Shown here: piece by piece, positions 18,030-35,723 of the stretch
Position numbering within the stretch: position 1 is the first letter of the stretch
How the letters are laid out: every line of letters begins with the position of its first letter
NCBI GenBank assembly: GCA_965221695.1
Contig: OZ244905.1
Span: forward strand, 1,664,001 to 1,728,000
Origin: Gammaproteobacteria bacterium
GTDB taxonomy: Bacteria; Pseudomonadota; Gammaproteobacteria; Eutrophobiales; Eutrophobiaceae
Length of the DNA: 64,000 bases
Reading direction: 5' to 3'
Program-made: the position numbers and the translations under genes
The notes under the pieces: generated by a model
Told to the model about the DNA's origin: nothing
Database searches by the model: none
Seen by the model: the letters and a program-made list of their open reading frames with translations, nothing else

Positions 18030-18078
18030 TAGATCAGGACACTGGAATCCAGGAAAATCACGGCTCGCTGGTTCTCTG
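18030..18078 (-). pseudogene. Remnant of a second vapB/vapC junction
   Basis: 42/49 nt identical to 23668-23716; encodes VIFLDSSVLIY versus MIFLDTNVLIY. Confidence 0.7.
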
Positions 18079-18404
18079 TCCGCTATACCGAGCGCTTGGC
18101 GGCGGCCGGGATTGAGGCCTCTGTGGGCAGTGTGGGGGATTCCTATGACAATGCGTTGGCGGAGACGATCATCGGCTTGTATAAGACGGAAGTAATCCGG
18201 GCACGAGGGCCATGGAAGACACTCGATGATGTGGAATATGCCACCTTGGAATGGGTGGATTGGTTCAATCATCGTCGTTTGCTGGCGCCGCTCGGCAATG
18301 TGCCGCCGGCTGAATATGAACAGATGTACTATGATGAGATTAACCGGTCATGCATAGCCGCATGACTCAAACTAACGAGTCTCCGGGATTCCCGGGGCGG
18401 TTCA
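18076..18404 (+). mobile_element. IS3-family remnant (3' end of orfB plus right inverted repeat)
   Basis: SVRYTERLAAAGIEASVGSVGDSYDNALAETIIGLYKTE...WVDWFNHRRL; ends GTCTCCGGGATTCCCGGGGCGGTTCA, an IS51/IS629-type end. The 5' part is missing. Confidence 0.9.
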
Positions 18405-18520: not shown

Positions 18521-20284
18521 TTAGTGCCCTTTCTTAATTAGAAATTCGTCCATATTTTTATATTTGGATTTATGCTTTATCATTGGACATCTTTCTACTA
18601 TCCTATCCAATATTTTTCTTAACGTATCATCAGCCCACTCGTATTCATCATCAAACACCATTGTTAGCAGCATAAAACTATCCTCTGGAAACTCATCAGG
18701 TAAATTCGTAGCTTTAAAGCTATTAAGGAAATACCCGAGATCAGAAAACGGACATAAGAACGATTTGAATTCCTCAACTGCATTTGGAAAAGCTTGATCA
18801 GTCTGTATACAAACCATCGCAAATTGTCTTGATATTTTTGCATCGATTGCATTTGCCTCTTTCGGCCATGTATCTCTAATGAATGGTTTTATTCGGTTTG
18901 TCCAATAGGCGTCCCGCTCGTGGGCTTTATTTGGAAAACTACGTGAAAGATAATTTGCGATTTCAACCTGGCCCTCTGTGCCTATGTCACGTAGTATTTG
19001 TTGTTGTTGATTGGTGGCAAATACATTCACGTATTCCATACAAATCACAGCTACCAGATGATACAAGCTAGTTACATTATTACCTAATAATTCGACATGA
19101 TTAAATGTTTCTATAAAACTATCTTTGATATCATCAATCAACTCAAGGGTTATTGTCGGCATCCATAAATAACCTACCCACAAACATCTGGCTTCTTCTG
19201 GTTCCTGCCAGTTAAATTTCGGAATTAATTTTTCCTTTGTCCATTCTGGATCAACGATATAAAAATAATATAGGCGAGAAGCTAGTATTACTCGGGCTAA
19301 AGAAAATGATGTGTCCTGTTTTGTAACCAGTGTATTTAGTATGTTTTCTATAGGTCCGTCGGGTATGCCTGCACCCTTCTTCAACTCCCTACTTCCAATT
19401 CTTGTTAGTAACGATTGCGTAAGCATCCCTAATGGGTGATTAATTGCGTCATTAACTGGCTCATCAATATCTTGTGTTTCTTCACGATCAACCGATTCAA
19501 TAAACTTATTGAAGATCGTCCAGTAATTTTCTTCGCTATCCGAATTTGGGATTATTTTAGGAGAAGATTTACTGACCCACCGAGCCACTGCCCATCCCGC
19601 TTCTGTATAAATACGTATTGGCATATCAACAAGTAGGGGTGCAATCTTGCCCCACGTTGACACTTCCGCATCCGCCAAGCCTACTAGGGCGGCATACCAT
19701 ATTTCGCCGTTCCAAATTGAGTTCTCATGCAAGTAACTAAGTGTCTCAACTGCCATTTCATTACCTTTCTCACCTTCGTTACAGACTACCCGGAATAAAT
19801 CGATTCTTCCTTCATGAAATTTTTGGTTCTCTTCTAGAAGCATGTTTACTCTGTCCATCACCGGCGGTACCATCAAATCATTCTTACTGATGTCGCATTC
19901 GTTTCCTCCCCAAGATTCAGACCAAGATATAAATTCGTCTTTATCATCTTTACTAAGCTTCCATCTTGGATGGATCGCTTCTAGCTCATTTAGCCGTTCA
20001 ATACCTGCATTTGGTAAAGCTTTACCAAAAGTCTGTAATTTAGCTAGATGAAGCCAGATTTGTTTCTCGAAGAAATATTCCCAAGCTGCTGACTCCATAT
20101 CGCTTTTATACATTTCCCGAGGGGGGCCGTTTAGTATCACTTTCATTAAACGATCAGTGTCTATGTCATTGAGTTGTGGCCATATCTTATTTAATAATCG
20201 AAACTTCTCTGTATATGTCTCAAAAGACCACAGCCACCATCCGTTTTCATCAAGAAGGTATTCCAGTGCGTCACTCTTGTTCAA
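18521..20284 (-). CDS. C-terminal half of a Dsr1-type defence-associated sirtuin
   Basis: LLDENGWWLW, GPPREMY, WLHLAKL, AINHPLG, LASRL...VDPEWT, YWTNRIKPF...WPK match the Dsr1 C-terminal half as I recall it; TTG start; AT-rich. Confidence 0.75.
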   Translation of the reverse strand: MNKSDALEYLLDENGWWLWSFETYTEKFRLLNKIWPQLNDIDTDRLMKVILNGPPREMYKSDMESAAWEYFFEKQIWLHLAKLQTFGKALPNAGIERLNELEAIHPRWKLSKDDKDEFISWSESWGGNECDISKNDLMVPPVMDRVNMLLEENQKFHEGRIDLFRVVCNEGEKGNEMAVETLSYLHENSIWNGEIWYAALVGLADAEVSTWGKIAPLLVDMPIRIYTEAGWAVARWVSKSSPKIIPNSDSEENYWTIFNKFIESVDREETQDIDEPVNDAINHPLGMLTQSLLTRIGSRELKKGAGIPDGPIENILNTLVTKQDTSFSLARVILASRLYYFYIVDPEWTKEKLIPKFNWQEPEEARCLWVGYLWMPTITLELIDDIKDSFIETFNHVELLGNNVTSLYHLVAVICMEYVNVFATNQQQQILRDIGTEGQVEIANYLSRSFPNKAHERDAYWTNRIKPFIRDTWPKEANAIDAKISRQFAMVCIQTDQAFPNAVEEFKSFLCPFSDLGYFLNSFKATNLPDEFPEDSFMLLTMVFDDEYEWADDTLRKILDRIVERCPMIKHKSKYKNMDEFLIKKGH

Positions 20285-22259
20285 GATTAGTATCTCTTAA
20301 ATTTTCCGCTCTAGTGGTATAAGCATGTAACACTAAGCGCCGGAATACGGGATAGTCTATTGACTTCCACAGATTCAAAATTATTTCTGCTTGCACCGGA
20401 TCATCTTCAAAGCAGGCATCCCATACATCGCGGCATAACTCAATCAATATTACCCAGTTATTGAAGATATTATTTTGTGAATGTGGAGCGATAGATGCCA
20501 TATCCCAACTACTTCTATCATGTAGCCGGTCTGCATGTCCTAGGTGGTTCCATATTCGCATTGTCGCATTCAGTGCTTGCGTAATATCAGATAGAATTGG
20601 GACTAAGAATTTAGGGTATTTTTCACATTCTTTTAGCTGACTAAAATTCCATTCAGATAACAAAATCACCACATCTGTATCATACAGTCTTGTAGATTCC
20701 TGGTAATCACCTTCGTGATCACTGCCCATAAATTCATCCGGCAATTCGTAATATCTCTTCAATTTAAGTCTTGGCTGCAGCAGCAGAACAAATTCTCGAT
20801 AGATCAACTGATCAGTTTTTTTTCTCAGTGAGCTAATAATATCCTGATGAGTAACATCCTCCGGATTATCACGGAGCAGAAAGTCTGATGTGATCATTCT
20901 CCAAAAAGAGAAATAAGGCTCCGATGGCGGCGGTTCGCGTCTAAATTTATGACGAATAAAATCTAATAGTCTAGGATGCAGAACACCACCCTTGTCTAGG
21001 ACCCATTGAACCAGCAATTTTTGTTCCAAATGCTTACTTAACCATTTCCATAAATTCAACGTAACGTTATTTGGCAGGGTCACATTGAGATTAGTATTAT
21101 AGTCCACAACAGAAGAACATTGAGATGGTTTAGTCGGCAAGCCAAGAAGGCCATATTGATCAAAAACCGGCAACCATTCGATAGGTGGCACAGGTTCCGA
21201 TTCTGAAAATACTTTTGCAGGATATCCTGATGGTTCGGTTCCATCCATATTCTCCTGCTGTTTAATTATTTCGATTATTCCCTTAGTTACATCATCTTCA
21301 TACGGCGGTAATGGTGGGTATTGTGCTTTTGTCCTGATCATGCGTTCAATACCGCGAAGACCAAGACGACGATGTTCAGCCCATTTTATTAACGTATCGT
21401 GTAGATACTCATGATCATTATCATTTTCAGACTGATATAGAATTGGAATGACACCTTTAGCTTCCCAAGCTGCACGTGTAGACTGCGAAGTGACATCATC
21501 CGTATCAGCTAACACGTATGACAAATTGGCTTGTTTGTATCCGCTACGTTGATCTGCCGCAATAGCATCCGTTATATATCGAATGACAAGGTCTTCTATG
21601 CTATAGCCAACAAATATAACAGTAAAATGGCGGAAGATTTCACTTACGAAACGGCTTGCCCAACGTTCAGTAAGATAGGCAGCTCCATAATCCCCACTCG
21701 TTATAACTAAGTTTTTGCCATTGGGATCATTTTCCTCATCAATAATGCCGTGAATATGAACCAGACTATTCCATTTATGTGGCTTCGGCACTGGTAGCTT
21801 TGGTGCTGCGTCTAACTCTAACGATAGGTTTAACTTATCTTTTGCTAAAATAAAACCTTTATCAAAATTCGTCGTGACCAGTCTGATCCCACCATCTTTG
21901 GTCTTTGCCAACTCCAAGAGCGCTTTGTGGGTGTTAACATTCGATGAGCCATCCAATTGTAGGCATTCAATAATTTTTTTTCGTACCAGATAGTTATCCG
22001 TTCTATCTGGCTTTTGGTATCTGCGTTCTAATAGATCAAGAGCTCTATCGTATAATTTTTTATCAATTGCTTCCTTTTCTAAAGAATTTTGATCATCTCC
22101 TAACCTTTGATATGTATCTTCGACTAGTTTCTCAAATCCAGGCAATCCTGCCGGATAAGATACGCCAGCGCCACAAAAAAAGATTAACCTGTCATTTTCT
22201 TGGGCATTTAGCACTTCCAATGGGATATCAGGGGCACCGTTTGCGGAAATAAATCTCAT
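20271..22259 (-). CDS. SIR2-domain protein, N-terminal half of Dsr1-type anti-phage protein
   Basis: FFCGAGVSYPAGLPGF, LVTTNFD, HIHG, TSGDYGAAYLTERWASRFVSEIF, FVGYSIED, WEAKGVIPILY, HDRSSWDMASIAPHSQN. Confidence 0.85.
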   Translation of the reverse strand: MRFISANGAPDIPLEVLNAQENDRLIFFCGAGVSYPAGLPGFEKLVEDTYQRLGDDQNSLEKEAIDKKLYDRALDLLERRYQKPDRTDNYLVRKKIIECLQLDGSSNVNTHKALLELAKTKDGGIRLVTTNFDKGFILAKDKLNLSLELDAAPKLPVPKPHKWNSLVHIHGIIDEENDPNGKNLVITSGDYGAAYLTERWASRFVSEIFRHFTVIFVGYSIEDLVIRYITDAIAADQRSGYKQANLSYVLADTDDVTSQSTRAAWEAKGVIPILYQSENDNDHEYLHDTLIKWAEHRRLGLRGIERMIRTKAQYPPLPPYEDDVTKGIIEIIKQQENMDGTEPSGYPAKVFSESEPVPPIEWLPVFDQYGLLGLPTKPSQCSSVVDYNTNLNVTLPNNVTLNLWKWLSKHLEQKLLVQWVLDKGGVLHPRLLDFIRHKFRREPPPSEPYFSFWRMITSDFLLRDNPEDVTHQDIISSLRKKTDQLIYREFVLLLQPRLKLKRYYELPDEFMGSDHEGDYQESTRLYDTDVVILLSEWNFSQLKECEKYPKFLVPILSDITQALNATMRIWNHLGHADRLHDRSSWDMASIAPHSQNNIFNNWVILIELCRDVWDACFEDDPVQAEIILNLWKSIDYPVFRRLVLHAYTTRAENLRDTNLEQE

Positions 22260-22370
22260 CTAATTTTTCCAGCCGAAATATCCCAACAAAGAAATGAACA
22301 AGGTCTCTATTACACGGGTAATGTGAGCGGTTAACTGCTAACTACACGTTGACACCATTGAGCGACTTAG

Positions 22371-22718
22371 TCAATTACCCTTCGCGCATTTTTGCCAAGC
22401 AGCTAACATATACTTTTCCAACCAATCAGTTAGCATCTCGGTCTCAACAATGGCGCGATAGGGCGTATCACGGGGGGTATGTCCAATTTCTTTTCCTAGC
22501 GTCATGGATGCGCGTGAAAAGTCGCCGTGCATCTTTATTTTGCTTACAACCAGCATCATCAAATTCCTTATCTTGTTGCTGCCGGATGCTGTAAGCTCAT
22601 ATCTTATTATTGCCCACGCCGATTCATCACGGATAAAATCAATGAAATCATACCCAGCCTCGGTGGAACGATAGCATTGTTCGTTTACGGAATATAAGCT
22701 CCTCTTATTCCACGGCAT
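22371..22718 (-). pseudogene. Hypothetical protein, possibly a DUF2513-like remnant
   Basis: RSTEAGYDFIDFIRDESAW resembles the DUF2513 motif RLTwxGhdFLDaIRDxxvW; a short out-of-frame MKR start lies at 22740. Confidence 0.3.
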
Positions 22719-22904
22719 CTGTGCGCAACTGTCGTTTCATTGAAAGTGCTCTTTTTTCTGGAAATATGACCTGTTTAGAAATCCACTCAATTATACCCAG
22801 TAGTACCCAGTTGTTCTTCGTTCATTTCAAGTTGTCCTTAAGTATTCTGTTCACTCCATATACCTGATAGATTTTGCCTTGACAGTGCCGTCTACTTCCC
22901 TTGT

Positions 22905-23078
22905 TATCGAATATTATTTACTCTGAGTGTTATTTCATGTGAGTATGAATATCATCACTCCAATAAAATGCAAACAACGAATATATTCCCTCTATTATCA
23001 TGAACAAAATGATAAAAAAATGGCTTAGAGGAACAACATGACCGTTGATTAGTGGCCTGATATGTCTTCGGGGATGAA
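22905..23078 (+). repeat. Defence-island module, copy 1 (degenerate)
   Basis: TATCGAATAT...ATTTCATGTGAGTATGAATATCAT...CAAACAAC...TGGCTTAGAGGA; small ORF MNKMIKKWLRGTT* is frameshifted. Confidence 0.85.
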
Positions 23079-23085
23079 AATCGTC

Positions 23086-23230
23086 GATAATAAGTACAGA
23101 GAGGCAAGGAGTGGACAAATTTGTGCGTTGATTATCGACTCAATGGCGATTATTTTCTGAGCAGTTACATCCGTATTTGGTGCGCCATGGGTTGGCGCAC
23201 TAATTGGGGAAGCTGTATGATTGGGCTTGA
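23086..23230 (+). pseudogene. Remnant of DUF2335-like two-TM membrane protein C-terminus
   Basis: Translates DNKYREARSGQICALIIDSMAIIF*AVTSVFGAPWVGALIGEAV*LGL, an RxGQ motif plus two hydrophobic helices with in-frame stops. Confidence 0.5.
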
Positions 23231-23282
23231 ACAGTCGTGGGGAGATGTTCTATGAGGGTTTCTCCGAGATTCTGGCAATAAT

Positions 23283-23699
23283 TCAAGGCGTGACCAACTG
23301 TACAGATGGAAAATATGTCTTGATTCTGGATGAGTCCGCGCTGGCGAGTGTCCAGCCCATCACCTGGGCATGCGCGCCGATAAAGAAGTCCGGCAAGGGG
23401 ATGCGCGGAGAGTCTTTTCCTGATTCTTTCCATCTCCGTTGTCGATATTGCATGTATGCTACCGCACAGACTTCTGCTGCCGCAGCCGGTACGTCAAGGA
23501 CTTCAACACCCCAACTGCGAATGCGGTCCGCTACCGTTGCCGGAAATTCGTCACCAACGCAGATCTCAGCCAGGCAAATGGCATTGATAGCTGCGCCGTC
23601 CTCGGATACTGCATCGGCTATAATGCCTTGCGCCCAGTCCTGGAATCGCGAGCCATCTTCCGACGAGTAGATCAAAACATTGGTATCCAGGAAAATCAC
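23283..23699 (-). CDS. vapC: VapC/PIN-domain toxin
   Basis: FLDTNVL, conserved E (LAEI), PDFFIGAHA and terminal SAD acidic residues. Confidence 0.9.
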   Translation of the reverse strand: MIFLDTNVLIYSSEDGSRFQDWAQGIIADAVSEDGAAINAICLAEICVGDEFPATVADRIRSWGVEVLDVPAAAAEVCAVAYMQYRQRRWKESGKDSPRIPLPDFFIGAHAQVMGWTLASADSSRIKTYFPSVQLVTP

Positions 23700-23950
23700 G
23701 GCTCACGGGTGCTCTGCCGCAGTTGTTCCCAGGACAGCGCCAAACGCAGAGGAGACTGGCGCATCGCTTTGATACAGGCTGAATGGCTCTTACTGGACAC
23801 CGCTTTCGGATACTGCAAACGAACCAGCAAGTATTCTTCATCCGTCTGCCGCCGAACATCAAAGACATCCCCCGGCTCGGCGCCGGGAAGAATAACTCGT
23901 TTCTTGGCATCTGCTCGTGTAATGCTCATAGGTGGGATTATCCCACTCAT
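23696..23950 (-). CDS. AbrB/MazE-like antitoxin (VapB)
   Basis: DAKKRVILP..EPGDVFDV swapped-hairpin pattern; 4-nt GTGA overlap with the PIN gene. Confidence 0.7.
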   Translation of the reverse strand: MSGIIPPMSITRADAKKRVILPGAEPGDVFDVRRQTDEEYLLVRLQYPKAVSSKSHSACIKAMRQSPLRLALSWEQLRQSTREP

Positions 23951-23984
23951 TAATCATCTCTTCAAGCAAAATGTCTGAAGCTGT

Positions 23985-24180
23985 TATCGAATATCGTTTA
24001 ATCTTTGCGTCATTTCATGAGAATATGAATATCATTACTCCAAGAATATGCAAACAACCTAAATGTTCCCGTCATCAAGTGGAATAAAGATAAAACTCTG
24101 GCTTAGAGGAGCAGCCACAACAGTTGATTTGTGACCTGATACATCGTATGGGATGAAAGGAATTTCTAAATCGTTCAGAT
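23985..24180 (+). repeat. Defence-island module, copy 2 (degenerate)
   Basis: Same leader; encodes ...KIKLWLRGAATTVDL*PDTSYGMK with the start lost and a Trp-to-stop change; also shares AATCGTTCAGAT with copy 3. Confidence 0.85.
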
Positions 24181-24500
24181 GACTTGATGCGATGAAAGCA
24201 CTCGCCTACGAGGGTTCGGGGTGGGTGCGGCAAGCAAACCCCCCAAGCTCAATCACCGTAACCAGCATCGTCGGGTCGAATTATTGGGAAAACGTAGCGG
24301 CGAACATTGGATCGGAAAGCCTTTCATTCATGCTGCAGCTTGATGAAGGGGCAGTACGCCTACAAACATATGCCGGAGCGGGACAGACGACAGCCAGACG
24401 TGTGGCATGAGGCTTCTTTTTATGCTGCGATACGCCAGTGCATCGAGCCGCATATAAAGGGCTGAGATCACCTGTGCCAGGCACTATCGAAGAACAGCTA

Positions 24501-24566
24501 TAACTACTTGATATATATGCAATAAATATGCTGCCAGATTATCCATTTGCCCCCATGTTGCCCCCA
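24501..24566. promoter_or_regulatory. IHF-consensus site plus TGCCCCCA direct repeats (att-arm-like)
   Basis: TAACTACTTGATA is the reverse complement of WATCAANNNNTTR; TGCCCCCA occurs at 24548 and 24559. Confidence 0.4.
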
Positions 24567-24679
24567 ACTGCAAATTCGCCTTGTTAGGAGTGTAGCCTCT
24601 AACCAAGTACAGTTCATCCGAAGCAGAATTCTGGACTCAGTGATGTTTTATTGCTCAAACGCTATGACTGCTGCGTATT

Positions 24680-25032
24680 CCGGTAAAATTGGGCAGTCGT
24701 TCTTGGGCAAGCTGGACAGTTGATCCGGTGTAAAGCGGGCGGTCGTCGGAGCACAGTGACGCGGAGGTGTCATTATGATCCCAAGTGTCCAGTTTAATTG
24801 GTCAAGCCTGTGTGACGTTTTAGCATGGATTCCCTGGCCAGATGCATCTTATAGGCGTTAGGGACGACGCGATCCAAGATGGCATCGGCCAGGGTCGGAT
24901 TATCAATGAGTTCATACCGGTGATTGACTGGGAACCAGTGTGGTGTGCACCGTAGCGATCGTCCAACAGTTCGAGTAAGTCACGCCGGTGTTTGTCCTCG
25001 AACCGGGTGTCGTCAAAGTCGTCAAGTACCAA
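24680..25032 (-). mobile_element. istB: IS21-family remnant (frameshifted istB 3' end and terminal region)
   Basis: LVLDDF...RRDLLELLDDRYG then, in another frame, DNPTLADAILDRVVPNAYKMHLARESM. Confidence 0.8.
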
Positions 25033-25990
25033 CCCCAAATGTCAGGATCGTTTCCTTTTCTGCTTCTGGCACAGGAGAGATAGTCGATAAATCAACGTCA
25101 AATCGGACATTCTTAATCGGGTCATCGGTGCAAATTTTTGGAGCCGGGATATCCGAAGCCCGAAAGATGTCAAGTCCATCTTCTTCCGGATAAGTCTGAA
25201 GCGTCAGATCACTGTCATATAGATCTCGCCCACCTTTTTCTAGGCATTGTGTCAAGAAGGTGCTTCGAAGATTCCGATCATCGATCCGTGCGGCCAAGGA
25301 GTCCATGAGGACACCGACTGTTTGTCCGCTTTGTACTTCTACAGCGCATAGAGACACGATGAAGACGTTATAGGTACGCGAAGGTCTGAGTTGTTCTAAT
25401 GAGAAGCGATGCAGTGGCCACGATTTTGTAGTGGTCTTCACATCCAGGACGAATGTGTCGGAGACGAAATCGTACTTTGCGGTGTTTCGCGAACTCCAGC
25501 ACCGCACAGCAGCATTGATATCGGATACGCAGCTAATCACATGGAGTTCACCCCACAAACCAATCAAATCACGTGTGTTGTCTGCGATTCGGCTGAATAG
25601 CGCGGCTACTTGTTGAATACTTACTGCGATCTCTGAATTGTTCGCGGGCGGATTTAGTGTGCAAAACCGTTCTTCGAGGATTTTGAGAAACAATCGGACA
25701 ATGGCCGGGTCGTTCTCTTTCAGTCGGACAATCGAATAACACCCTTGATGTGATTCGCGCTCTTTAGTGTCGATAATACATGCGCGGGAGAAAAGTACTT
25801 CAACTGCGCGCAGTGAGATGTCGGGCCGCAGATCGTCTGTGCGTGCGGGCAGTAAAAGTGCAGGATGGGCTTGCGAGTTGATAGCGAGCCAATAGGGGTA
25901 GTCTATTGTAAGGGGTAATCCGAAGTGGGCCGAGCCAGAGTCGTCTTTCGGAATCTCCTGACAGAGTTTTGGGTACAGGATGGTCAACAT
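25022..25990 (-). CDS. PD-(D/E)XK motif protein (DUF4420 / MzaD-like)
   Basis: IGLWGELHVI...W...YDF...LDVKTT...HRFSLEQL. Confidence 0.85.
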   Translation of the reverse strand: MLTILYPKLCQEIPKDDSGSAHFGLPLTIDYPYWLAINSQAHPALLLPARTDDLRPDISLRAVEVLFSRACIIDTKERESHQGCYSIVRLKENDPAIVRLFLKILEERFCTLNPPANNSEIAVSIQQVAALFSRIADNTRDLIGLWGELHVISCVSDINAAVRCWSSRNTAKYDFVSDTFVLDVKTTTKSWPLHRFSLEQLRPSRTYNVFIVSLCAVEVQSGQTVGVLMDSLAARIDDRNLRSTFLTQCLEKGGRDLYDSDLTLQTYPEEDGLDIFRASDIPAPKICTDDPIKNVRFDVDLSTISPVPEAEKETILTFGVGT

Positions 25991-25996
25991 GAACTG

Positions 25997-28198
25997 TCAC
26001 TGCTCGACCCAGACACGTTCAATTAATGAGTCAGGGATATGAACGGCCAAGATGGGCACATCGCGGAGCATACGTCTCTTATCAGCAGTCTGGATGTCAT
26101 AGCGATGTAGTTGGAATGTCACGGTCTCGGCGGAGATAAGATCTCGCGCACCGGGATAGTTGGTGCGTTGATTAGATCCTTGCCAAAGTTGCTTAATCTT
26201 TGGCGGTTTCTTTTTTGTCAACGTTCGTTTGTATTCTACGCCCGACCACGGACCGGCTAGCGCGTAGAAACTGCATGTCATGTTTGGTTCTTTGGAAACC
26301 ATAGTTTCCAGACAGAGCATTAGTGCGTTGTGCCGAAGATTGTCGTCAAGCAAGCGATAGCGGAACTGGCCGATCCAGGGTATGATCTCGGAGAGCAAGA
26401 GCGTGTTGCTGAAGGCAGGCACGACCTGCTTGTCGTTCCATCCGTCTTCACGGTAAGCCGCAAAATTAAATACCCCCAGAATGTCTTTAACAATCTCGCG
26501 GTTTTCTGATACGGTTTCACTGTCTTCAAAGGGGTGATCCGGGACAATCCACCCGCCTCGCCCCTTGGATTGGTACATATTTAGCAATATGACTGAAGAA
26601 CGGGTTGGCTTTAGCGTTTGATCTAGAAAATATGTACGACGCCATTCCTTGAGGGTCTGGCCATTCTCCAGATGTCTTCGGATTGAACTTCGAACTGATT
26701 CCTCATGCCTTACATAGTCAGTGAAAGCATTGATATTCGTGTTAGTGAGATAAATGCGGCATAGCCCGAGATATTGCTTCTTGTAGCCAAAAAAGCGCGC
26801 GCGCTGCTGGATGTTGTCAGCATTTCCGACCCCTGTTGAGCGCGGCATATAGCTGACCGTCAGTCCCTCAACTGTGAAACCACGATCTAGTCCAATCCCG
26901 CCGATCAGTATCCAGCTATATTCACCAGCCCAATCGACGGAGGTGATCCGACTCTTTTCACGCGTATTGAGTTCTGCAACTGCAGTTTCTTCCATTGCTT
27001 CAAACAAGATGGGTGCAATCTGATCGATAGTGATGGGCGTGTCATAGGTTGCGAATATCCCTTCTGCTGAATTGTAAAATTCGTTAAGGACTGCCTCATG
27101 CCTCGGGTGTGTGCCATCCTTCAAGATGGCTGACCAATCATCTTTGATCTGCTGAGTCCATCGCTTGAACATTAAATGTTCATCCTTCGCGACGGCAGGA
27201 TGGATCATCATGGAACGGTTCCGGCCTTTTTGAAATTCCTCTTCGAGCAAGCCGATCGCCACTCCGATAAAAAAATCTTGTAGGGCAGCGCGCAGACTTT
27301 CTGGCGGTTCCTGTCGCGGTTCGTTCTTGTCGGGCACCTCGCTCAAGGGGATCAACTTAACGTGTCTGTCTAATCCGTCGACAAAGAACTCCTCTCCGCC
27401 GACATAGTGAGCGCCGGGTGTTAGCACCCGTCCAAAATCCGGTGAGAGAGAATCAATACGACTTATGAGAAGCGGTGCCTGCGGAGTCGCTGTGTAGAGT
27501 ATGTAACTGTGAGTTGGGAACAGGTCGCGGAGCTCTCTGATCCGTGCATAAGTTGTGCTTTCTTCCTTCTGTTTGGCTTTAGTGTTCATCCCTGCTTGAT
27601 CACCTTCGTCGTCGATGATAAGCGTTGGCACATCAGAGAAATCGGAATTTGCAAGGAGTCTAGCGAGATTTCTAAGATGCTGATGTTGCTTCATCGATAC
27701 GATCATAATCGTCCGAGCACGTGTGCTCTTGCGCCGCCAGCGTTCGAGTTCCATGTCCACACGTTTAACTTCGTCCTGCTGGAACGCTTTCTGTTGTGTG
27801 GTGAAAAGGTTCCATTCGCGAGTTGTCACTATATCAAGGTCGCCCTTCAGACGGACAAAACTCTGTTCTACTAGATTGTTTGTGGTACCGGCAAGGAGGA
27901 TGACAAGCCGAAAGCGATTATCACGCGCCAGCGCAGCAAGGCTAGTAAATGATAGGGTTTTGCCGCTCTGCACATAACCGATCACCAACCCCGTGTTCTC
28001 GGCGATTGTAGATTCGGGTTGGATGCATTCGCTCATGATCGACACGGTTTCTCGGACGAGGCGTTCTTTTTCATCTTGCGATAATGAAGTACTGGCATTC
28101 AATAGGTCTGTAAATACTTTGCCTTGGACCGGCGACCAAGTGCCATTAGCTTTCTGGTTGCTTGATTCGACCGTAATCGTCGTGGGTTCGTTAGCCAT
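25997..28198 (-). CDS. Z1-domain protein with SF2 helicase-like N-terminus (MzaC-like)
   Basis: GYVQSGKT, IIDDEGD, YTATPQA, SMMIHP, IGGIGLDRGFTVEGLTVSY, QRARFFGY. Confidence 0.9.
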   Translation of the reverse strand: MANEPTTITVESSNQKANGTWSPVQGKVFTDLLNASTSLSQDEKERLVRETVSIMSECIQPESTIAENTGLVIGYVQSGKTLSFTSLAALARDNRFRLVILLAGTTNNLVEQSFVRLKGDLDIVTTREWNLFTTQQKAFQQDEVKRVDMELERWRRKSTRARTIMIVSMKQHQHLRNLARLLANSDFSDVPTLIIDDEGDQAGMNTKAKQKEESTTYARIRELRDLFPTHSYILYTATPQAPLLISRIDSLSPDFGRVLTPGAHYVGGEEFFVDGLDRHVKLIPLSEVPDKNEPRQEPPESLRAALQDFFIGVAIGLLEEEFQKGRNRSMMIHPAVAKDEHLMFKRWTQQIKDDWSAILKDGTHPRHEAVLNEFYNSAEGIFATYDTPITIDQIAPILFEAMEETAVAELNTREKSRITSVDWAGEYSWILIGGIGLDRGFTVEGLTVSYMPRSTGVGNADNIQQRARFFGYKKQYLGLCRIYLTNTNINAFTDYVRHEESVRSSIRRHLENGQTLKEWRRTYFLDQTLKPTRSSVILLNMYQSKGRGGWIVPDHPFEDSETVSENREIVKDILGVFNFAAYREDGWNDKQVVPAFSNTLLLSEIIPWIGQFRYRLLDDNLRHNALMLCLETMVSKEPNMTCSFYALAGPWSGVEYKRTLTKKKPPKIKQLWQGSNQRTNYPGARDLISAETVTFQLHRYDIQTADKRRMLRDVPILAVHIPDSLIERVWVEQ

Positions 28199-29759
28199 CG
28201 GAAAGCCTTTTTGACAATTGATTTCTTAGTATTTCATTGGTGAAACGACGAATCGCGGACGGATGATGGTCGCCGAGTTCACTAGACACGATCTCGGCAA
28301 GTGCCATAGCAGCGGCAATGTTTAGAACAGCGGTAAAGCTCTCGGAATCGAGCGTCGGAAACTGGGCCATGAACGGGTGCAACATCGCGATGCGGATGGT
28401 TATCTGACGAGGTTCCGGATCAGAGATTGACGGACGATTCTGGATGTCCAGCCAATCTGCACCATTGTCCGCATAGGAAAGTTCTATTCCGACAATCCAA
28501 TCCTCACTACGAAAACGCATACGAATGCGCACATGCTCATTGTCACTTTCAGGAATGTCGGGCAATGGCGTGTTTTTATCTTGCACTGCGTTAAATTGGT
28601 AAGAGGCGCCTTGGCCGACCGATTGTGTTGCCGATGTCAGGCTTTGATTATTCAGTTGCTCAGCCATGGACATCAGTGCGGATGTAGCATCCTTGCGAGT
28701 GGCCTTCACATCCTTCTTGCTCCGGTGCTCGCGCACCTGCTGAAGCAATGGTAGTCCGTCTCCCGAAAGCATCATGCGGAGTTCTTTTAGGAAAGTTTCT
28801 TCAGCGTCCTCCCACTTGATGCCGTCCTTCGTATGACTGACGTGAAATCCCTTGAGGTGAATTTCACCAAAAATTCGCTGAAACGCGAAGGTGTTAGAGC
28901 GTCCGAATATGTGCTCGGGGCGGTAGGTCTCGTCGAAGCTTCCCATGATCAGCCGCTTACGCCGAAAGAGTGCCAAACCCGCAAAGCGTGTGCTGCCGGT
29001 TTCACGGATTGCAACGAAACCCGTTGCGGTTCTGTCGTCACCTAGATCAATTTCGATGTCCTTCTTCCAGGTGATGGAGGGGCCATCAGGGTCGCGGTAA
29101 CTCGGCGCGACTAGTATGTCAGGATCTTTGTAAAGCAGCGGATCGCCATCCACTGTCAACTGCATAAAACCATCTCGGATGAATGCGCGATATATACTGG
29201 AAAGATGATCCTTGATCTTCTGAACCGTCCGCCCTTGCGGGAAGCGGCGAATATTGTCAAGTCGGATTTCCGTATAGTGTTTGCCGGCAGATACATTTGT
29301 TGAGATGACGTGCAGTTCTTCCGTGCTGTCCTCCACAATTTTTTCGATGTCGAAGATGACAGAGCGCTCAATATTCTCTCCGAGCGCTGAGGTCCGCACA
29401 GTCCAGTTTGGTGAAAACCAACAAGCTGCGCTTTTCATTCCCATACCAAACTCCGATAGGCCGGACGCATCGGGTGGTATCTCTGCCGGGCGAAAAGCCC
29501 GCCGATAGTCTGACATCGCTATTCCTGCTGCATTGTCACGGATCGTAATGCAGTTCTCTTGCGGTACGAAGCGGATATCGACATGAAGCCTATAGTTTGC
29601 GCCGTCAGTAGCCCTGAGACTTCTCTGATTATCTAGGCTGCTTTGTATTGCGTTATCGACGAATTCCGCCAATGCGTACCACGCCTTATAGTTCAAATGC
29701 GGCAGAACTGAAAGAACATTTACACCAGGGCGAATGTTAACGGAATTCAGTAGTGACAT
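28191..29759 (-). CDS. MORC/MutL-like GHKL ATPase (MzaB-like)
   Basis: ALAEFVDNAIQS, IRDNAAGI, SEFGMGMKSA, YTEIRL GHKL boxes plus an S5-like domain. Confidence 0.9.
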   Translation of the reverse strand: MSLLNSVNIRPGVNVLSVLPHLNYKAWYALAEFVDNAIQSSLDNQRSLRATDGANYRLHVDIRFVPQENCITIRDNAAGIAMSDYRRAFRPAEIPPDASGLSEFGMGMKSAACWFSPNWTVRTSALGENIERSVIFDIEKIVEDSTEELHVISTNVSAGKHYTEIRLDNIRRFPQGRTVQKIKDHLSSIYRAFIRDGFMQLTVDGDPLLYKDPDILVAPSYRDPDGPSITWKKDIEIDLGDDRTATGFVAIRETGSTRFAGLALFRRKRLIMGSFDETYRPEHIFGRSNTFAFQRIFGEIHLKGFHVSHTKDGIKWEDAEETFLKELRMMLSGDGLPLLQQVREHRSKKDVKATRKDATSALMSMAEQLNNQSLTSATQSVGQGASYQFNAVQDKNTPLPDIPESDNEHVRIRMRFRSEDWIVGIELSYADNGADWLDIQNRPSISDPEPRQITIRIAMLHPFMAQFPTLDSESFTAVLNIAAAMALAEIVSSELGDHHPSAIRRFTNEILRNQLSKRLSDG

Positions 29760-29775
29760 TACTCAACTGCCACAT

Positions 29776-31062
29776 CTATATGGACTGCGCTCTTAATGTG
29801 GGCTTGCCTATTAAGGCATCACAAATATTACGCACGACATCGACATTGACGGCATTTCCAAATGCTTTATAGGCGTCGTTCTTTGTGTCGGGTAGATGGG
29901 TAAGTGAACCCATACTTTGCAGTCGGCTGCATTCGCGTGGAGTCATATAGCGCTTTTGCCATGCAATTATAGGGACCTGGCTGGTCGTCATTGCAATAAG
30001 CGATGGGGCGGCTTCATCCTTTTTTACGCGAATGCCGCTCGCCCGAAACTGGATGAGGTGTTTCCATATACTGCGCTCGGCCCCTTTACAGTTCCACTCA
30101 AGTTTCTGAAAGCTCGGGGGAAACTTTTTGATCTTGTCGATCCAAGGGTCAATTATTGAGTGGTGGACTGCATAAAATGCGCGGTTCTTCATAATAAAGT
30201 CGATCTTCCAACCCGGAAACGTTTTGAGCGATGTGCGCGCATAGGAGGGTAAAGCTGCTTCGACCTGTTCTAGAGATAGGCCAGCCAGAGGAACTCCGAA
30301 CGCCCCCTTGAAGCCGTCAAGCCCGGCGTAACCGCGCGCATGCGGCGTCAGGCCATCTAGTGGATAGTCAGCCCCGAACTCCATAGCCCAAATCGGGAAT
30401 GTAGGCAGGGATTGATCTGTCGGAAATGCTGCGATGAAGTCCTGCCATGTTTCCAGATAAAGGAGATGATCGTTATTTAGTCCCTGCGCTTCGAGCGGCT
30501 CATCATCAAGAATTGAACGGATGGACGTTCGCGGAACAGTTTCCGGGATTGGCCAAGTGAAGTCATCCAAACTCTCTCGATCACCGACAATGAAGGCGCG
30601 CTCACGCTTTTGAGGAATGCCAAACATATGCGGCGATAGGCGCTCAAAGCTAATGTCATAACCAGCATCTTTGAGTCGATTGCAGATTATTGACCAAGTC
30701 TGCCCCCCGTTGTGGCGGATCAAGTTAGGAACATTTTCGATTATGAAAAAGCGAGGCTTCTTCAGCTTCAAGATCGCTACAACGTAGTCAAAGAGATTCC
30801 CCCATTGTGGACATTCAAGGCCCTTTTGGTCCCCGGCCTTTGAGAACGGCTGGCATGGGAAGCCTGCACAAAGAATGTCGTGCTCTGGGATGATGGCGAG
30901 GTTGATTTTTCGAATATCACCAGCGGGTTCTATGCCAAAGTTCTTCCTGTAGAGATCGGCAAGCACATCATTGAGTTCGGATGCGAAAACACATTCTGCT
31001 CCTCGGCTTTTTAGCGCTTGATGGAAGCCGCCTAGCCCGGCAAAGAGATCAATGAACTTCAT
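29776..31062 (-). CDS. dcm: DNA cytosine-5 methyltransferase (ORF track extends to 31140)
   Basis: FIDLFAGLGG (motif I), AGFPCQPFS (IV), ENV (VI), QKRER (VIII), RYMTPRECSRLQ and GNAV (IX/X). Confidence 0.95.
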   Translation of the reverse strand: MKFIDLFAGLGGFHQALKSRGAECVFASELNDVLADLYRKNFGIEPAGDIRKINLAIIPEHDILCAGFPCQPFSKAGDQKGLECPQWGNLFDYVVAILKLKKPRFFIIENVPNLIRHNGGQTWSIICNRLKDAGYDISFERLSPHMFGIPQKRERAFIVGDRESLDDFTWPIPETVPRTSIRSILDDEPLEAQGLNNDHLLYLETWQDFIAAFPTDQSLPTFPIWAMEFGADYPLDGLTPHARGYAGLDGFKGAFGVPLAGLSLEQVEAALPSYARTSLKTFPGWKIDFIMKNRAFYAVHHSIIDPWIDKIKKFPPSFQKLEWNCKGAERSIWKHLIQFRASGIRVKKDEAAPSLIAMTTSQVPIIAWQKRYMTPRECSRLQSMGSLTHLPDTKNDAYKAFGNAVNVDVVRNICDALIGKPTLRAQSI

Positions 31063-31199
31063 GGAATCGTTGTGTTCTCCGCAGAGCGCTCTCCGAACGC
31101 GTATGGGTAAGTTTGTGACGCGGTGGTCTTCGGGCGACATGCGGCTTTCCCACTTGATTGTTTGGTGAGAATCTCGGTTTGTTGTGCCGCCACACTCAC

Positions 31200-31391
31200 G
31201 ATGTTAGCTACATCAATAAATGCCATTGGTCGGCAACTTACTTTAACAGCATCCCGAACGACCCAAGAAATGGAGACCTTTTTCTGAGCCGCGATTAGTT
31301 GCTCCACAATGTGATCTAGCTCAGATGGAAAGCTAACTGAGGCTCGGTGTGAAGGTGGTCGGCGCACATCTTTCGCTGCTGCCTTTCCCAT
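31200..31391 (-). pseudogene. Ribbon-helix-helix (CopG-like) regulator, apparently frameshifted
   Basis: RASVSFPSELDHIVEQLIAAQKKVSISWVVRDAV; the family-typical ending is in another frame as K*VADQWHLL. Confidence 0.65.
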
Positions 31392-31480
31392 GTCTGCCAG
31401 TCTTCGAAAAGGAAGTGCATCATTCTACACCAAGGTGGTGTAACTCACAATTCCCCATCCCCCATCCCCCATTTCCTAGA

Positions 31481-31767
31481 TATCGAATATTGTTTGCTCC
31501 TGGCGTTATTTCATGTGAGTATGAGTATCATAATTCCAAGTAAACGCAAACAACGAAACTATTCCCGATATCATGGGCAAAAAGATATTAAACTGGCTTC
31601 GAGGAGCAACCACTACAGTTGATTTATGGCCTGACACCTCTTCAAGGATGAGACAGAAGTTTTTGAATCGTTCAGATAAAGACGCCTTGACTCAGGATTG
31701 GAATCGCATTGGGAACGACATGAAAGACGCCATAGGGAAATATGAGCAAGACCAAACCAAGACGTAG
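31481..31767 (+). repeat. Defence-island module, copy 3 (small ORF intact)
   Basis: Same ~90-bp leader as 22905 and 23985, followed by an intact 64-aa ORF. Confidence 0.85.
31573..31767 (+). CDS. Small hypothetical protein (64 aa) of the type found upstream of DUF2335 genes
   Basis: SDKDALTQDWNRIGNDMKDAIGKY motif; overlapping downstream ATG at 31742 (MSKTKPRRSAQRP...) looks like a truncated partner gene. Confidence 0.7.
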   Translation: MGKKILNWLRGATTTVDLWPDTSSRMRQKFLNRSDKDALTQDWNRIGNDMKDAIGKYEQDQTKT

Positions 31768-31837
31768 CGCTCAACGACCTGGCGGGGGCTGGGCGCCAAG
31801 GCAGAGGCGCTATCCGTAATCAGGACTAGTCGGGCAG

Positions 31838-32323
31838 TTACCGGCAGGCAGCATATAACCCGGGGCAGGCGCGCTCGATCATGTCGAGCACATCCTCGAA
31901 GCCCTGGGGGCCGCCGTAGTAGGGGTCAGGCACATCAGGCGCCAGTTCGGGGCGGTCTTGCCAGGACGGGAGAAATGATCCCAGTAGCCGAATATGGGGT
32001 TGGGGGCCGCCGGCGAGTTCTTCCAGGTAACGCAGGTTGTCCCGGTCCATGGCCACGATCAGGTCGAATTCGTCCAGGTCTTCGAATATGACCTGGCGCG
32101 AGATGGACGTCAGTGTATAACCGCGCTCAGATGCGGCTGCGCGCATACGCGGGTCGGCGGGCCTGCCGCTGTGGTAGTCGATGATACCCGCAGAATCGAT
32201 GTGAAAATCCTCCGCCGCGCGTTGCTGTTCGGCGTAATGCCTGAATACGCCTTCCGCCGCCGGTGATCGGCAGATATTTCCCATACAGACAAACAGGACG
32301 GTTGACTTGGTTTGCTGCACCAT
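31838..32323 (-). CDS. Low molecular weight protein-tyrosine phosphatase
   Basis: VCMGNICRS P-loop and DPYYG. Confidence 0.95.
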   Translation of the reverse strand: MVQQTKSTVLFVCMGNICRSPAAEGVFRHYAEQQRAAEDFHIDSAGIIDYHSGRPADPRMRAAASERGYTLTSISRQVIFEDLDEFDLIVAMDRDNLRYLEELAGGPQPHIRLLGSFLPSWQDRPELAPDVPDPYYGGPQGFEDVLDMIERACPGLYAACR

Positions 32324-32324
32324 A

Positions 32325-34591: not shown

Positions 34592-34612
34592 CTTGTTCTC
34601 CTAAAAGTCAAG

Positions 34613-34682
34613 CGAGCGCCGTTATAAAACAGAGGTGGTCTGAGCCTGGTGGGGCAACCCCATCGCAGCGCTCCTCAGACCT
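34613..34682 (-). ncRNA. SAH riboswitch
   Basis: Minus strand reads CTGAGGAGCGCTGCGATGGGGTTGCCCCACCAGGCTCAG...AACGGCGCTCG, the SAH riboswitch consensus with the GAGCGC/GCGCTC pseudoknot, just upstream of the ahcY RBS. Confidence 0.9.
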
Positions 34683-34798
34683 GAATCGCAGGTTTGTCAG
34701 TCTAGCACAACACCTGTCGCAAATGAAAGAGGAAGGGAGAGGGGAAAAATTTCCCTGCCTTTGCGAATTATTAGGTGCGCAAAGTTTATACTGGAGCC

Positions 34799-34835
34799 TT
34801 AAGGAACCTCTGATTAAGTCTCAGAGGTTCCTTAA
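34799..34835. repeat. Family A short hairpin
   Basis: TTAAGGAACCTCTGATTAAGTCTCAGAGGTTCCTTAA with a perfect stem. Confidence 0.85.
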
Positions 34836-34850
34836 TATCCACTATCGATA

Positions 34851-35099: not shown

Positions 35100-35136
35100 A
35101 CTCTTTCAAGAAACTCTACTGAAAGGAGATTGTGAA

Positions 35137-35664: not shown

Positions 35665-35695
35665 GGAACCTCTGAGACTTAATCATAGGTTTCTT
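35662..35695. repeat. Family A short hairpin overlapping a stop codon
   Basis: TAGGGAACCTCTGAGACTTAATCATAGGTTTCTT. Confidence 0.75.
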
Positions 35696-35723
35696 GCCAG
35701 CACCGCAGAAAACCATACAAAAT

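Follow-up and report, generated by a model that had tools for sequence, protein, structure and literature searches.

The locus studied here raises the question of how one small module came to stand three times, in the same orientation, beside different defense units, and of what the copies do there. We analyzed a stretch of 64,000 nucleotides (the window) together with the rest of the 3.54-Mb genome and its relatives. An earlier reading of the sequence without database searches (the sequence-only reading) had taken the module for the end of a small mobile unit that delivers different defense cargo, or for a recombination or regulatory hub shared by that cargo.

Three module copies in a low-GC defense island

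A repeat search and a MAFFT alignment identified three direct repeats, starting at 22896/22903, 23976/23983, and 31472/31481 and ending at 23079, 24182, and 31677. This established, at 22903, 23983, and 31481, the three direct copies that had been claimed. The copies were 71-78% identical in pairs. In a search of the whole genome they scored E 3e-34 to 6e-112, and no fourth copy was found there, the other matches being 16-20 nt long and at chance level. With three copies only, all direct and at one locus, a MITE or IS-type repeat was rejected.

Each module consists of a non-coding leader of ~92 nt followed by a small ORF, denoted s64, and contains an imperfect palindrome, GAGTATGA-ATA-TCATCACTC, that spans the -10 region. 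The ORF is intact in copy 3 only (31573-31767, 64 aa). Alignments showed that in copy 1 a 1-nt deletion after codon 13 is followed by in-frame stops, and that copy 2 has lost its ATG and carries TGG->TGA at codon 19. The sequence-only reading had described a ~90-bp non-coding leader with this palindrome and the same state of the three ORFs, and both descriptions were correct. The features of the island are as follows.

18030..18083, minus strand: remnant of a second vapB/vapC junction, 85% to 23668-23720
18521-20284 and 20271-22259, minus strand: split Dsr1, left of copy 1 (Pfam/PADLOC/NCBIfam)
22371-22718, minus strand: 115-aa ORF, left of copy 1, in one block with the split Dsr1 (18521..22718)
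22903..23079, plus strand: copy 1, leader and pseudogenized s64 codons 1-27 (frameshift, stops; repeat search, alignment)
23080..23235, plus strand: continuation of copy 1, DUF2335 remnant, residues 76-127 of the protein of sister species G008, 69% aa identity
23283-23699, minus strand: vapC (PIN), convergent with copy 1, common to G008
23696-23950, minus strand: vapB, true start possibly 23929, common to G008
23983..24182, plus strand: copy 2, leader and pseudogenized s64 codons 2-36 (no start, Trp19 to stop; alignment)
24183..25021, no strand: ~840-bp stretch between copy 2 and the DUF4420 gene, no recognizable gene
25022..31391, minus strand: five genes, DUF4420 nuclease-like, Z1, HATPase_c_3 (MORC-like), C5 cytosine methylase (Dcm), and RHH
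31481..31572, plus strand: leader of copy 3 (alignment)
31573..31767, plus strand: intact s64 gene, 64 aa
31742..31777, plus strand: DUF2335 codons 1-12, in overlap with the 3' end of s64 (copy 3)

Each copy had been said to lie head-to-head with a different minus-strand defense unit. This geometry was confirmed, and Pfam, PADLOC, and NCBIfam annotation agreed with the cargo identities: the partners are the 115-aa ORF and split Dsr1 for copy 1, vapBC for copy 2, and RHH-Dcm-MORC-like-Z1-DUF4420 for copy 3. The ORFs of the 840-bp spacer, the 115-aa and a 122-aa ORF, and the genes in the corresponding slots of G008 gave nothing significant in Pfam, PHROGs, PADLOC, or NCBIfam. The vapB/vapC remnant at 18030..18083 is cut by a 327-bp repeat found genome-wide.

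The GC content of the island is 37-52% compared with 56-60% in the flanks, indicating a foreign origin. This low-GC hotspot sits between a secretin gene and LMWPc-metF-ahcY, and 19 kb of it stacks at least four unrelated defense or toxin-antitoxin blocks. The site holds no integrase, transposase-rich elements, or prophage, and no fragments of LMWPc, metF, the secretin gene, or the TPR gene were found inside the island.

Each module is the head of an s64-DUF2335 operon

We found that each module belongs to one copy of a two-gene operon, of which it represents the promoter/5'-UTR (~92 nt) and the first 27-36 codons. The first gene, s64, encodes a 64-aa soluble helical protein of an unannotated family. 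The second encodes a DUF2335 protein with two C-terminal membrane helices and overlaps s64 by 26 nt. In the alignment, the -10-like CATAAT of the copy-3 leader falls on the TGnTATACT/TATAAT boxes of other species, and this box is degraded in copies 1 and 2 (CATCAC, CATTAC). Copy 1 was formerly a whole operon, in which an internal deletion of ~315 bp took the s64 3' end and the DUF2335 5' end; its DUF2335 remnant also lacks the last ~11 codons. The DNA right after codon 36 of copy 2 is unrelated. Compared with G008, copy 3 lacks DUF2335 beyond codon 12 through a deletion of ~480-500 bp, and its conserved flank restarts at 31788. DUF2335 is thus inactivated in all three copies of the window, which holds remnants only, and PF10097 has no match above cut-off anywhere in this genome. 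The DUF2335 remnant after copy 1, the 12 DUF2335 codons after copy 3, and the conservation of the ORF in relatives had gone unmentioned in the sequence-only reading. That reading had also allowed for the end of a small mobile unit. An autonomous mobile end was not supported; the module is the head of a decaying s64-DUF2335 operon and is absent elsewhere in the genome.

Carriers of s64 comprise 14 relatives, namely 13 of the 22 other species of the genus, each with a single copy, and one species of another genus (G033). DUF2335 (PF10097, E 1e-12 to 1e-17) lies directly 3' of s64 in nine of the 14 and is fused to it in one 217-aa ORF in one (G012); at least 29 further database clusters contain the fusion with full-length coverage. 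DUF2335 is gone while s64 is still open in three carriers, and both genes are broken in one. Loss of s64 with DUF2335 kept was never observed, the opposite loss being seen in these three relatives and in copy 3. This repeated loss of DUF2335 with persistence of s64 provides a lead to function. Judged as a type II toxin-antitoxin pair, the 26-nt overlap and the DUF2335-first loss agree, whereas the stable fusion in one lineage and the domain searches, in which s64 had no DNA-binding domain match, do not. AlphaFold2 models were of low confidence (pLDDT 62 for DUF2335, 65 for s64), and a full-text literature search found no paper with DUF2335 in its title or abstract.

The two genes are an accessory, phage-type pair. 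DUF2335 matches phrog_3996 (E 5e-36), and in Alteromonas phage P24 a homologue of s64 (hhalign probability 95.8%, E 8e-9) lies directly 5' of the DUF2335 gene. The small ORF 5' of DUF2335 on an E. coli plasmid has no detectable relation to s64. The operon here resembles the known prophage pair of a small soluble protein and DUF2335 (PF10097 / PHROG 3996) in its overlapping genes, their order, the DUF2335 core followed by two membrane helices, and the homology of the small partner in P24. In contrast, it is chromosomal here, in three decayed copies, none of which keeps DUF2335.

Across the 14 species the operon occurs in at least seven chromosomal contexts. In relatives it stands at the head of small units that lack an integrase and are delimited by att-type duplications of the thyA 3' end. 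Three thyA 3' fragments, one in G019 and two in G001, share the codon position at which they start, each is preceded by a conserved element end, and the gene pair that comes first behind the intact or left-hand thyA copy is s64-DUF2335. An s64-DUF2335/vapBC/Fic/HigB islet of G016 is partitioned by a Macro gene together with two fragments of that gene. The ends of the thyA elements have no similarity to the window, and around the intact operons of eight relatives no terminal repeats, direct or inverted, rose above shuffles.

Comparison with a sister species

The sequence-only reading had supposed that different cargo is delivered to one locus. Neighboring cargo does differ between sister species: G008 has vapBC and copy 2 in common with this genome (G000), with other cargo on both sides. 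The identity of vapC and vapB to G008 is 98.6% and 94% at the amino acid level. Within the island, only 23169-24095 and 31483-31775 are common to the two genomes, and every end of these segments falls in or at a module copy. The cut in copy 2 lies at ORF +105 in G000 and at +18 in G008.

The repeated unit was larger than the module, as the junction of the DUF2335 tail with the vapC 3' end is present twice in G008 and a vapBC remnant lies at 18030-18083. Because this junction is repeated in G008, a module head plus the cargo to its right is a more likely natural unit than cargo plus the module to its right.

The leader sequence is known from G000 (three copies) and G008 (two copies) only, all at one locus. 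A 33-nt IUPAC pattern of the leader had no matches in JGI metagenome contigs and, in 400 genomes of the class, only three 3-mismatch matches, comparable to a reversed-pattern control. An independent example of a module-headed cassette at another place is therefore lacking. Between G000 and G008 the leader of copy 2 is 85% (77/91) identical, compared with 88.5% (100/113) at the four-fold sites of vapBC, and so is not constrained. Leaders of different copies are 78-80% identical, below the 85% between the two genomes at the same locus, which indicates that the copies predate the G000/G008 split.

Four-fold-site identity between the two genomes is 98-99% in the left flank, 90-94% in the right flank, and 86-90% in vapBC. 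No divergence gradient, a sign of one-sided recombination, was found in the flanks. Sequencing depth in two runs was 90-100 in the core flank compared with ~58 in the island, and unitigs broke at 23288, 23942, 24104-24128, and 31742-31758. This suggests that co-occurring strains differ at the island.

The copies share a sharp left boundary

The left boundary of the module is the same within 5 nt in four unrelated contexts: copies 1, 2, and 3 and the main copy of G008. The 150 nt upstream of these copies have no similarity (local scores 8-12 vs shuffle means of 9-10), and the 100 nt downstream of the same boundary score 53-65. Only copy 2 still has vapB upstream; the other three (copies 1 and 3 and the G008 main copy) each adjoin a different cargo block, whose end lies within 5 nt of the same position. 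The claim that the copies partition the island was borne out by this boundary and by the cargo differences from G008, the copies being joints between different cargo blocks.

At the leader start, TGTTATCGAATAT has 0-2 mismatches across the five copies of the two genomes. A short identical core could not be defined, the longest invariant blocks being 8 nt, and no solo TGTTATCGAATAT junction cores were found elsewhere at up to two mismatches, with three giving noise only. An 8-nt direct repeat, CGAATATC, flanks the intact G008 operon, its second occurrence lying 3 nt after the DUF2335 stop; it is not significant alone, as 154 of 500 shuffles yield some 8-mer. The cargo ends that abut the junction have no common sequence or hairpin, and the contigs of two sequencing runs that hold the island contained no excision or skipping joints.

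Our preferred explanation, to which we give a little less than an even chance, is that the array consists of decayed tandem cassettes, each headed by an s64-DUF2335 operon and joined at a specific junction. Each cassette would originally have been small and integrase-less, with leader-s64-DUF2335 reading to the right and the cargo reading back towards it. Serial joining in the low-GC hotspot would have taken place exactly where the leader begins (TGTTATCGAATAT). Deletions would afterwards have taken most of each operon, perhaps favored as DUF2335 is costly, and illegitimate events would have replaced cargo. As the recombinase behind the joints is not encoded by this genome today, that enzyme would have worked in trans or would since have disappeared. 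The module copies would now be scars and passive homology patches for which no function of their own can be demonstrated. In favor of this explanation are the sharp common junction, the cargo turnover at the joints, the larger repeated unit, the GC content, and the mobility and thyA-bounded units of the operon in relatives. Against it count the lack of an independent module-headed cassette, of a definable identical core, of anything common to the abutting cargo ends, of excision joints, and of a recombinase beyond two Xer-like genes.

The main rival is an ancient tandem duplication, which we consider doubtful although a genuine contender. In the common ancestor of G000 and G008, unequal crossing-over would have multiplied a ~1.1-1.5-kb unit of leader-s64-DUF2335 and convergent vapCB; unrelated cargo would have been inserted or substituted later, spare copies would have decayed, and the left boundary would be the end of the duplicated segment. 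This needs no recombinase and fits the confinement of the copies to this locus, their age, and the repetition of the vapBC remnants; that all five copies carry a leader absent from other species fits a single local origin equally well. However, the three cargo blocks that end at one position leave no trace of a preceding unit, and random replacement is not expected to hit the same position two or three times. In relatives, moreover, the operon travels on units with att-type duplications, in its several contexts.

An ordinary hotspot flank is an unlikely explanation. Leader-s64-DUF2335 would here be the conserved right flank, and cargo would be exchanged by homologous recombination in the flanks. 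Selection on the s64 promoter and deletion bias would trim insertions back to the promoter edge, and extra copies would be imported through one-sided homology or Campbell-type single crossovers. The boundary does lie where a functional promoter would be expected to stop, ~30 nt upstream of the putative -35, and the depth drop, the unitig breaks, and the heterogeneous four-fold-site identity across flanks and vapBC are in keeping with such exchange. The missing divergence gradient and the lack of core flanking-gene fragments speak against it, and a selective filter would be expected to leave a looser boundary than one precise to 5 nt in four contexts. Nor can selection now hold the boundaries of copies 1 and 2, as both are dead.

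Site-specific integration near s64 codon 36 is very unlikely. Elements would bring a replacement promoter and 5' end, mirroring elements that replace 3' ends, so that copy 3 would be a hybrid, and copies 1 and 2 native 5' ends that had been displaced. It would account for copy 2 ending at ORF +105 while copy 3 runs on, for the right-most copy alone being intact, and for the analogous thyA 3' duplications of relatives. The truncations, however, fall at variable points (+80 in copy 1, where a DUF2335 tail follows, and the two ends of copy 2 in G000 and G008), which largely refutes it; the DNA after each truncation has no common sequence, and copy 1 was once a whole operon.

Searches for recombinases, att sites, and RNA structure

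PF00589 has two matches in the whole genome, at 2.69 and 3.17 Mb, of 296-299 aa; both proteins appear Xer-like, judging from their length and number. PF00239 has no match in the genome, and there is no IntI-type tyrosine recombinase beside the array. Nor were attC-like hairpins found when the 32-143 nt upstream of each junction were folded as DNA on both strands (z -1.1 to +2.7). This agrees with the sequence-only reading, which had reported no integrase or convincing attC in the window. The dif-like site of the genome is at 402,241. An element exploiting Xer/dif (IMEX) was rejected, as the window has no dif-like site at up to three mismatches.

The proposal that the leader is a shared bidirectional control region, structured RNA, or operator for divergent defense units did not stand, and we regard it as the least probable reading of all. 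The head-to-head geometry at every copy, the palindrome over the -10 region, and a vapB start only 32-54 nt from the copy-2 leader would suit it. However, covariation analysis of the leader was negative (RNAalifold consensus, 0/24 predicted pairs covarying, energy -9 kcal/mol), and Rfam on 17000-36000 (E up to 1) gave an SAH riboswitch only. With nothing from Rfam in the module and no covarying pair, a structured RNA or operator was rejected. The copy-2 leader is unconstrained, the -10-like box has degraded in copies 1 and 2, and the promoter-like sites of vapBC and the RHH operon fall outside the module.

Relation to known systems

Tandem accretion of site-specific integrative elements and of decayed integrase-less derivatives (CIMEs) has been described (PMC5704250, citing Pavlovic 2004, Bellanger 2011). 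The array is similar in that direct repeats separate unrelated accessory blocks at one chromosomal site, the units lack integration genes, the unit-border position is reproducible (within 5 nt in four contexts), and deletion decay follows accretion. The duplicated thyA 3' ends that bound s64-DUF2335 units in relatives are a further likeness. Unlike in CIMEs, the repeat in the window is the promoter and 5' end of an accessory operon rather than a conserved target-gene end. The array's repeats measure 200-330 bp, differ by 20-25%, and contain no identifiable identical core; its units, of 0.3-7.5 kb, are very small; and the genome has no integrase of matching specificity.

As in integron cassette arrays, different cargo is stacked beside a fixed junction and a promoter-bearing segment. 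Unlike in integrons, neither IntI nor attC-like hairpins are present, the cargo consists of multi-gene operons with their own promoter-like sites, and the repeated element encodes a protein. A bolder version of our preferred explanation, which we think improbable, is that TGTTATCGAATAT, the first ~13 nt of the leader, is a dedicated site at which a recombinase foreign to the host adds cassettes serially. The site and the promoter-bearing operon would then loosely resemble attI plus Pc of an integron, the cassettes would be self-contained defense or toxin-antitoxin units, and the recombinase might come, for example, from a phage bearing the same s64-DUF2335 pair. If true, this would be an undescribed integrase-in-trans route to defense islands in integrase-less genomes.

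Defense-island hotspots flanked by core genes are a known concept. The island resembles them as a low-GC variable region between conserved genes whose defense systems differ between sister species (Dsr1 of different subtypes, vapBC, and a methylase-linked system). Unlike the usual hotspots, it is partitioned internally by repeated operon heads cut at the same nucleotide, and none of the papers listed by a literature search dealt with such an array. Blocks separated by the scars of one small operon offer a testable handle on how defense islands grow, and new cassettes can be sought in related metagenomes with the leader start as a probe. The s64-DUF2335 pair, which phages, plasmids, and chromosomes carry and which is sometimes fused, repeatedly accompanies small mobile islets.

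Three module copies are the heads of decayed operons

The sequence-only reading had described a module in the defence island, consisting of a ~90-bp leader and a small ORF (called s64 here, 64 aa when intact), present in three direct copies beside different defence or toxin-antitoxin blocks. Repeat search and MAFFT alignment confirmed the module (71-78% identity over ~180-200 nt), and the reading's account of the three ORFs and the neighbouring genes also held. Searching the whole 3.54-Mb single-contig genome recovered the three copies at E 3e-34 to 6e-112; the rest of the genome gave only 16-20-nt chance matches. The anatomy of the copies was read from tblastn and blastn comparisons with the sister species, G008.

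Module copies (direct orientation) and their minus-strand neighbours
Copy 1, start ~22903: leader and s64 codons 1-27, joined directly to DUF2335 residues 76-127 (69% aa identity), the last ~11 DUF2335 codons also missing; 1-nt deletion after codon 13, then in-frame stops; -10-like box CATCAC; beside a 115-aa ORF and split Dsr1
Copy 2, start 23983: leader and s64 codons 2-36, then unrelated DNA; ATG gone, Trp19 changed to a stop; -10-like box CATTAC; beside PIN-type vapBC
Copy 3, start 31481: leader, intact s64 (64 codons, 31573-31767) and the first 12 DUF2335 codons; -10-like box CATAAT; beside RHH / C5-methylase / HATPase_c_3 / Z1 / DUF4420

Because copy 1 joins s64 codons to the tail of DUF2335, the membrane protein encoded downstream of s64, it was once a whole operon. 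Past copy 3, ~480-500 bp found in G008 are absent and the conserved flank picks up again at 31788. No DUF2335 gene remains in the whole genome of the window (G000). These comparisons showed that the modules are the heads of three decayed paralogous operons.

The s64-DUF2335 operon

We found s64 to be a conserved gene: among the genus's 22 other species, 13 have exactly one copy, and so does one species of another genus (G033). In 9 of the 14 s64-bearing genomes it is followed by a 134-148-aa DUF2335 protein (PF10097, E 1e-12 to 1e-17) with two hydrophobic helices at the C-terminus. The s64 family is small and unnamed (42 clusters among 5.8 billion proteins) and has no Pfam domain. DUF2335 has a match in phrog_3996 ("membrane protein", moron category, E 5e-36). 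It turned up in 26 of 50,697 phage records and in 13 of 72,556 plasmid records. In Alteromonas phage P24 an s64 homologue lies directly upstream of the DUF2335 gene (hhalign probability 95.8%, E 8e-9); the small ORF that precedes DUF2335 in an E. coli plasmid had no detectable relation to s64. Confidence was low in the AlphaFold2 models (pLDDT 62 for DUF2335 and 65 for s64).

In the window's own lineage, s64 and DUF2335 share a 26-nt overlap. DUF2335 has been lost while s64 is still open in three relatives (G005, G003, and G002) and both genes are broken in G007; the reverse, with DUF2335 kept and s64 gone, was not seen. Both the overlap and the one-sided loss are reminiscent of an addiction pair. 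A naturally occurring fusion points instead to one membrane protein in two parts: s64 and DUF2335 form one 217-aa ORF in G012 (P0044; L041 1429-2082), and at least 29 further database clusters (212-230 aa, full-length coverage) have the same fusion; the two parts therefore act as a single unit.

Repeat-partitioned islets in relatives

The operon was found in at least seven chromosomal contexts. Toxin-antitoxin or defence genes lie within ~5 kb of it in 10 of 14 relatives, a purely descriptive count.

Chromosomal contexts of the s64-DUF2335 operon
LMWPc: G000, G008
Molybdopterin oxidoreductase/RNase T: G004, G018, G005
thyA: G019, G001, G003
folA: G006
Macro/vapBC: G016, G007, G002
Amidase/FadB: G009
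purEK: G033

Three thyA 3' fragments of ~317 nt in G019 and G001 all begin at exactly one codon, each behind a conserved non-thyA end (...GAAGTGATT...GGATGTCACTAAA). Past the left-hand thyA copy, s64-DUF2335 comes as the first gene pair. Site-specific elements that substitute their target's 3' end classically leave such a pattern; no integrase was found in these units. The G016 islet, which holds s64-DUF2335, vapBC, Fic, an AAA ATPase, and HigB, is divided by a Macro-domain gene and two fragments of it in direct orientation.

Repeats partitioning the islets
L047: 9266-9808 and 14447-14768, thyA 3' fragment loci
L048: 9491-9806 and 10848-11169, thyA 3' fragment loci
L052 (G016): 9333-9857, 12586-12843 and 17437-17953, Macro-domain gene and fragments

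Operon-headed, integrase-less islets partitioned by repeats are therefore a habit of the genus. The window is peculiar in that the operon head itself is the repeated piece. The thyA-inserted units lie upstream of folA, and the thyA copy of G019 is itself 5'-truncated beside a DDE transposase. A metagenome contig (L058) is identical in sequence to L052.

Same locus, different cargo in the sister species

The core flanks of the island are common to G000 and G008 (98.8% nucleotide identity on the secretin side, 97.3% on the LMWPc-metF-ahcY side). Between them lie 19.6 kb in G000 (12131-31788; GC 37-52% vs 56-60% in the flanks) and 11 kb in G008, which have only two segments in common.

Island segments common to G000 and G008
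23169-24095: tail of the copy-1 DUF2335 remnant, vapCB and copy-2 leader; 94% identity
31483-31775: copy 3, matching the intact s64-DUF2335 of G008; 85% identity

All ends of these segments fall in or at module copies; this partly follows from the modules being what the two genomes share and is not an independent statistic. G008 carries its own cargo: an AbiEi-like and an FGE-sulfatase gene, a Dsr1 of a different subtype, three unknown ORFs, and a second vapC-3' remnant. The comparison showed that cargo has been replaced on both sides of the modules since the two species split. Both species have Dsr1 as two ORFs, with different break points and in different subtypes (G000, 18521-22259, 662+587 aa, PDLC04167/02183; G008, L018 6339-10204, 339+948 aa, PDLC04166); these may be frameshifts or natural two-gene forms. 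Just beyond the ahcY operon on its right side lies another small variable spot (34855-35663, DUF4440/SnoaL-like gene region), which is only partly alignable between the two. A known element, the SAH riboswitch (RF01057, 64.6 bits), lies at 34607-34682 (-), upstream of ahcY-metF-LMWPc.

At four-fold sites, G000 and G008 were 98-99% identical on the left-flank side, 90-94% on the right-flank side, and 86-90% within vapBC. The copy-2 leader was 85% identical (77/91), and copy 3 agreed with the main G008 copy at 80% of leader positions and 85-89% of ORF positions. Leader divergence is on par with that of four-fold sites, and there is therefore no detectable purifying selection on the leaders. Leaders within G000 are 78-80% identical to each other, and the copies predate the species split. 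The sequence-only reading had also offered the module as a regulatory hub for the cargo. Neutral leader evolution contradicts this, as does the lack of structure (no stable fold, 0 of 24 pairs covarying, and no Rfam match in the module), and we consider it the least credible explanation.

G008 has two instances of the DUF2335-tail/vapC-3' junction, and in G000 a second remnant of a vapB/vapC junction, 54 nt long, lies at 18030-18083 (85% to 23668-23720). The repeated unit therefore took in vapCB downstream of the operon. This disfavours the earlier proposal of a unit made of cargo plus module, and favours the operon head plus right-hand cargo. The remnant sits within a 122-aa ORF (17904-18272), which is probably a composite of it and a 327-bp repeat rather than a real gene. 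The 327-bp sequence (18079-18405), which interrupts the vapBC remnant, has four genome copies at 99-100% identity (also at ~188.8, 441.0, and 2303.9 kb) and a 54-nt partial copy, with no clear terminal inverted repeats; its depth is ~6x that of the island in two public runs.

A shared left boundary and its possible origin

All three copies and the main G008 copy have a sharp left end, where similarity starts at the same place (TGTTATCGAATAT / AGATATCGAATAT / CGTTGTCGAATAT). Local alignment scores were 53-65 in the 100 nt downstream of the junctions and 8-12 in the 150 nt upstream, equal to shuffle means of 9-10. Four unrelated sequences, namely the upstream regions of the 115-aa ORF, vapB, and the RHH gene, and an unknown G008 ORF, thus meet one boundary within ≤5 nt. 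Of the signs of a specific joint, we rate this boundary the strongest.

Null searches, those for leader structure included, argue against a recognisable site-specific system. The absence of an integrase or attC noted earlier was upheld: no attC-like hairpins occur upstream of the junctions, and the whole genome encodes only two tyrosine recombinases, both of Xer size, and no serine recombinase. There is no dif-like site in the window and no solo junction core elsewhere at ≤2 mismatches.

Our preferred explanation, held tentatively and at a little under an even chance, is that units shaped [leader-s64-DUF2335 -> <- cargo] were joined serially at the leader-start junction by a recombinase that G000 would no longer encode, and that deletions then took out DUF2335 each time. 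The leader type is known from G000 and G008, and the evidence on mechanism rests on these two genomes. The main alternative, possible but rather unlikely, is an ancient tandem duplication of a four-gene block (leader-s64-DUF2335 and vapCB) with later cargo substitution. It accounts for the lineage-specific leader and the single locus, but requires that two or three replacements stopped at one and the same nucleotide. That elements integrated within the s64 ORF is very unlikely, as it is contradicted by varying truncation points; the copy-2 ORF runs to +105 in G000 and to +18 in G008. A hotspot flank with selection preserving promoters is an improbable further explanation. The cargo operons have their own promoter-like sites just outside the module (vapBC, 23965-23937; RHH operon, 31450-31422). 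A short triple repeat, CCCCAT/CCCCCAT (~31450-31472), lies directly upstream of the copy-3 junction and overlaps the RHH promoter-like site.

The closest known process is one in which integrative elements and remnants of them without an integrase, CIMEs, accrete in tandem (PMC5704250). CIMEs as described there repeat the target gene's end, whereas the window repeats an accessory operon's promoter and 5' end, in small units, and in a genome without any matching recombinase.

Population data

We examined two public runs as contigs, possibly including the source sample, and both carry the island. No joints skipping a cassette were reported in these contigs, a data type blind to rare excision. Depth was ~58 across the island, 90-100 in the right core flank, and ~155 at vapBC, with unitig breaks at 23288, 23942, 24104-24128, and 31742-31758. 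This fits co-occurring strains that differ at cassette borders. The depth of vapBC (23212-23812) was ~2.7x that of the rest of the island in the two runs, and the vapBC cassette is therefore present in additional strains or contexts of those samples.
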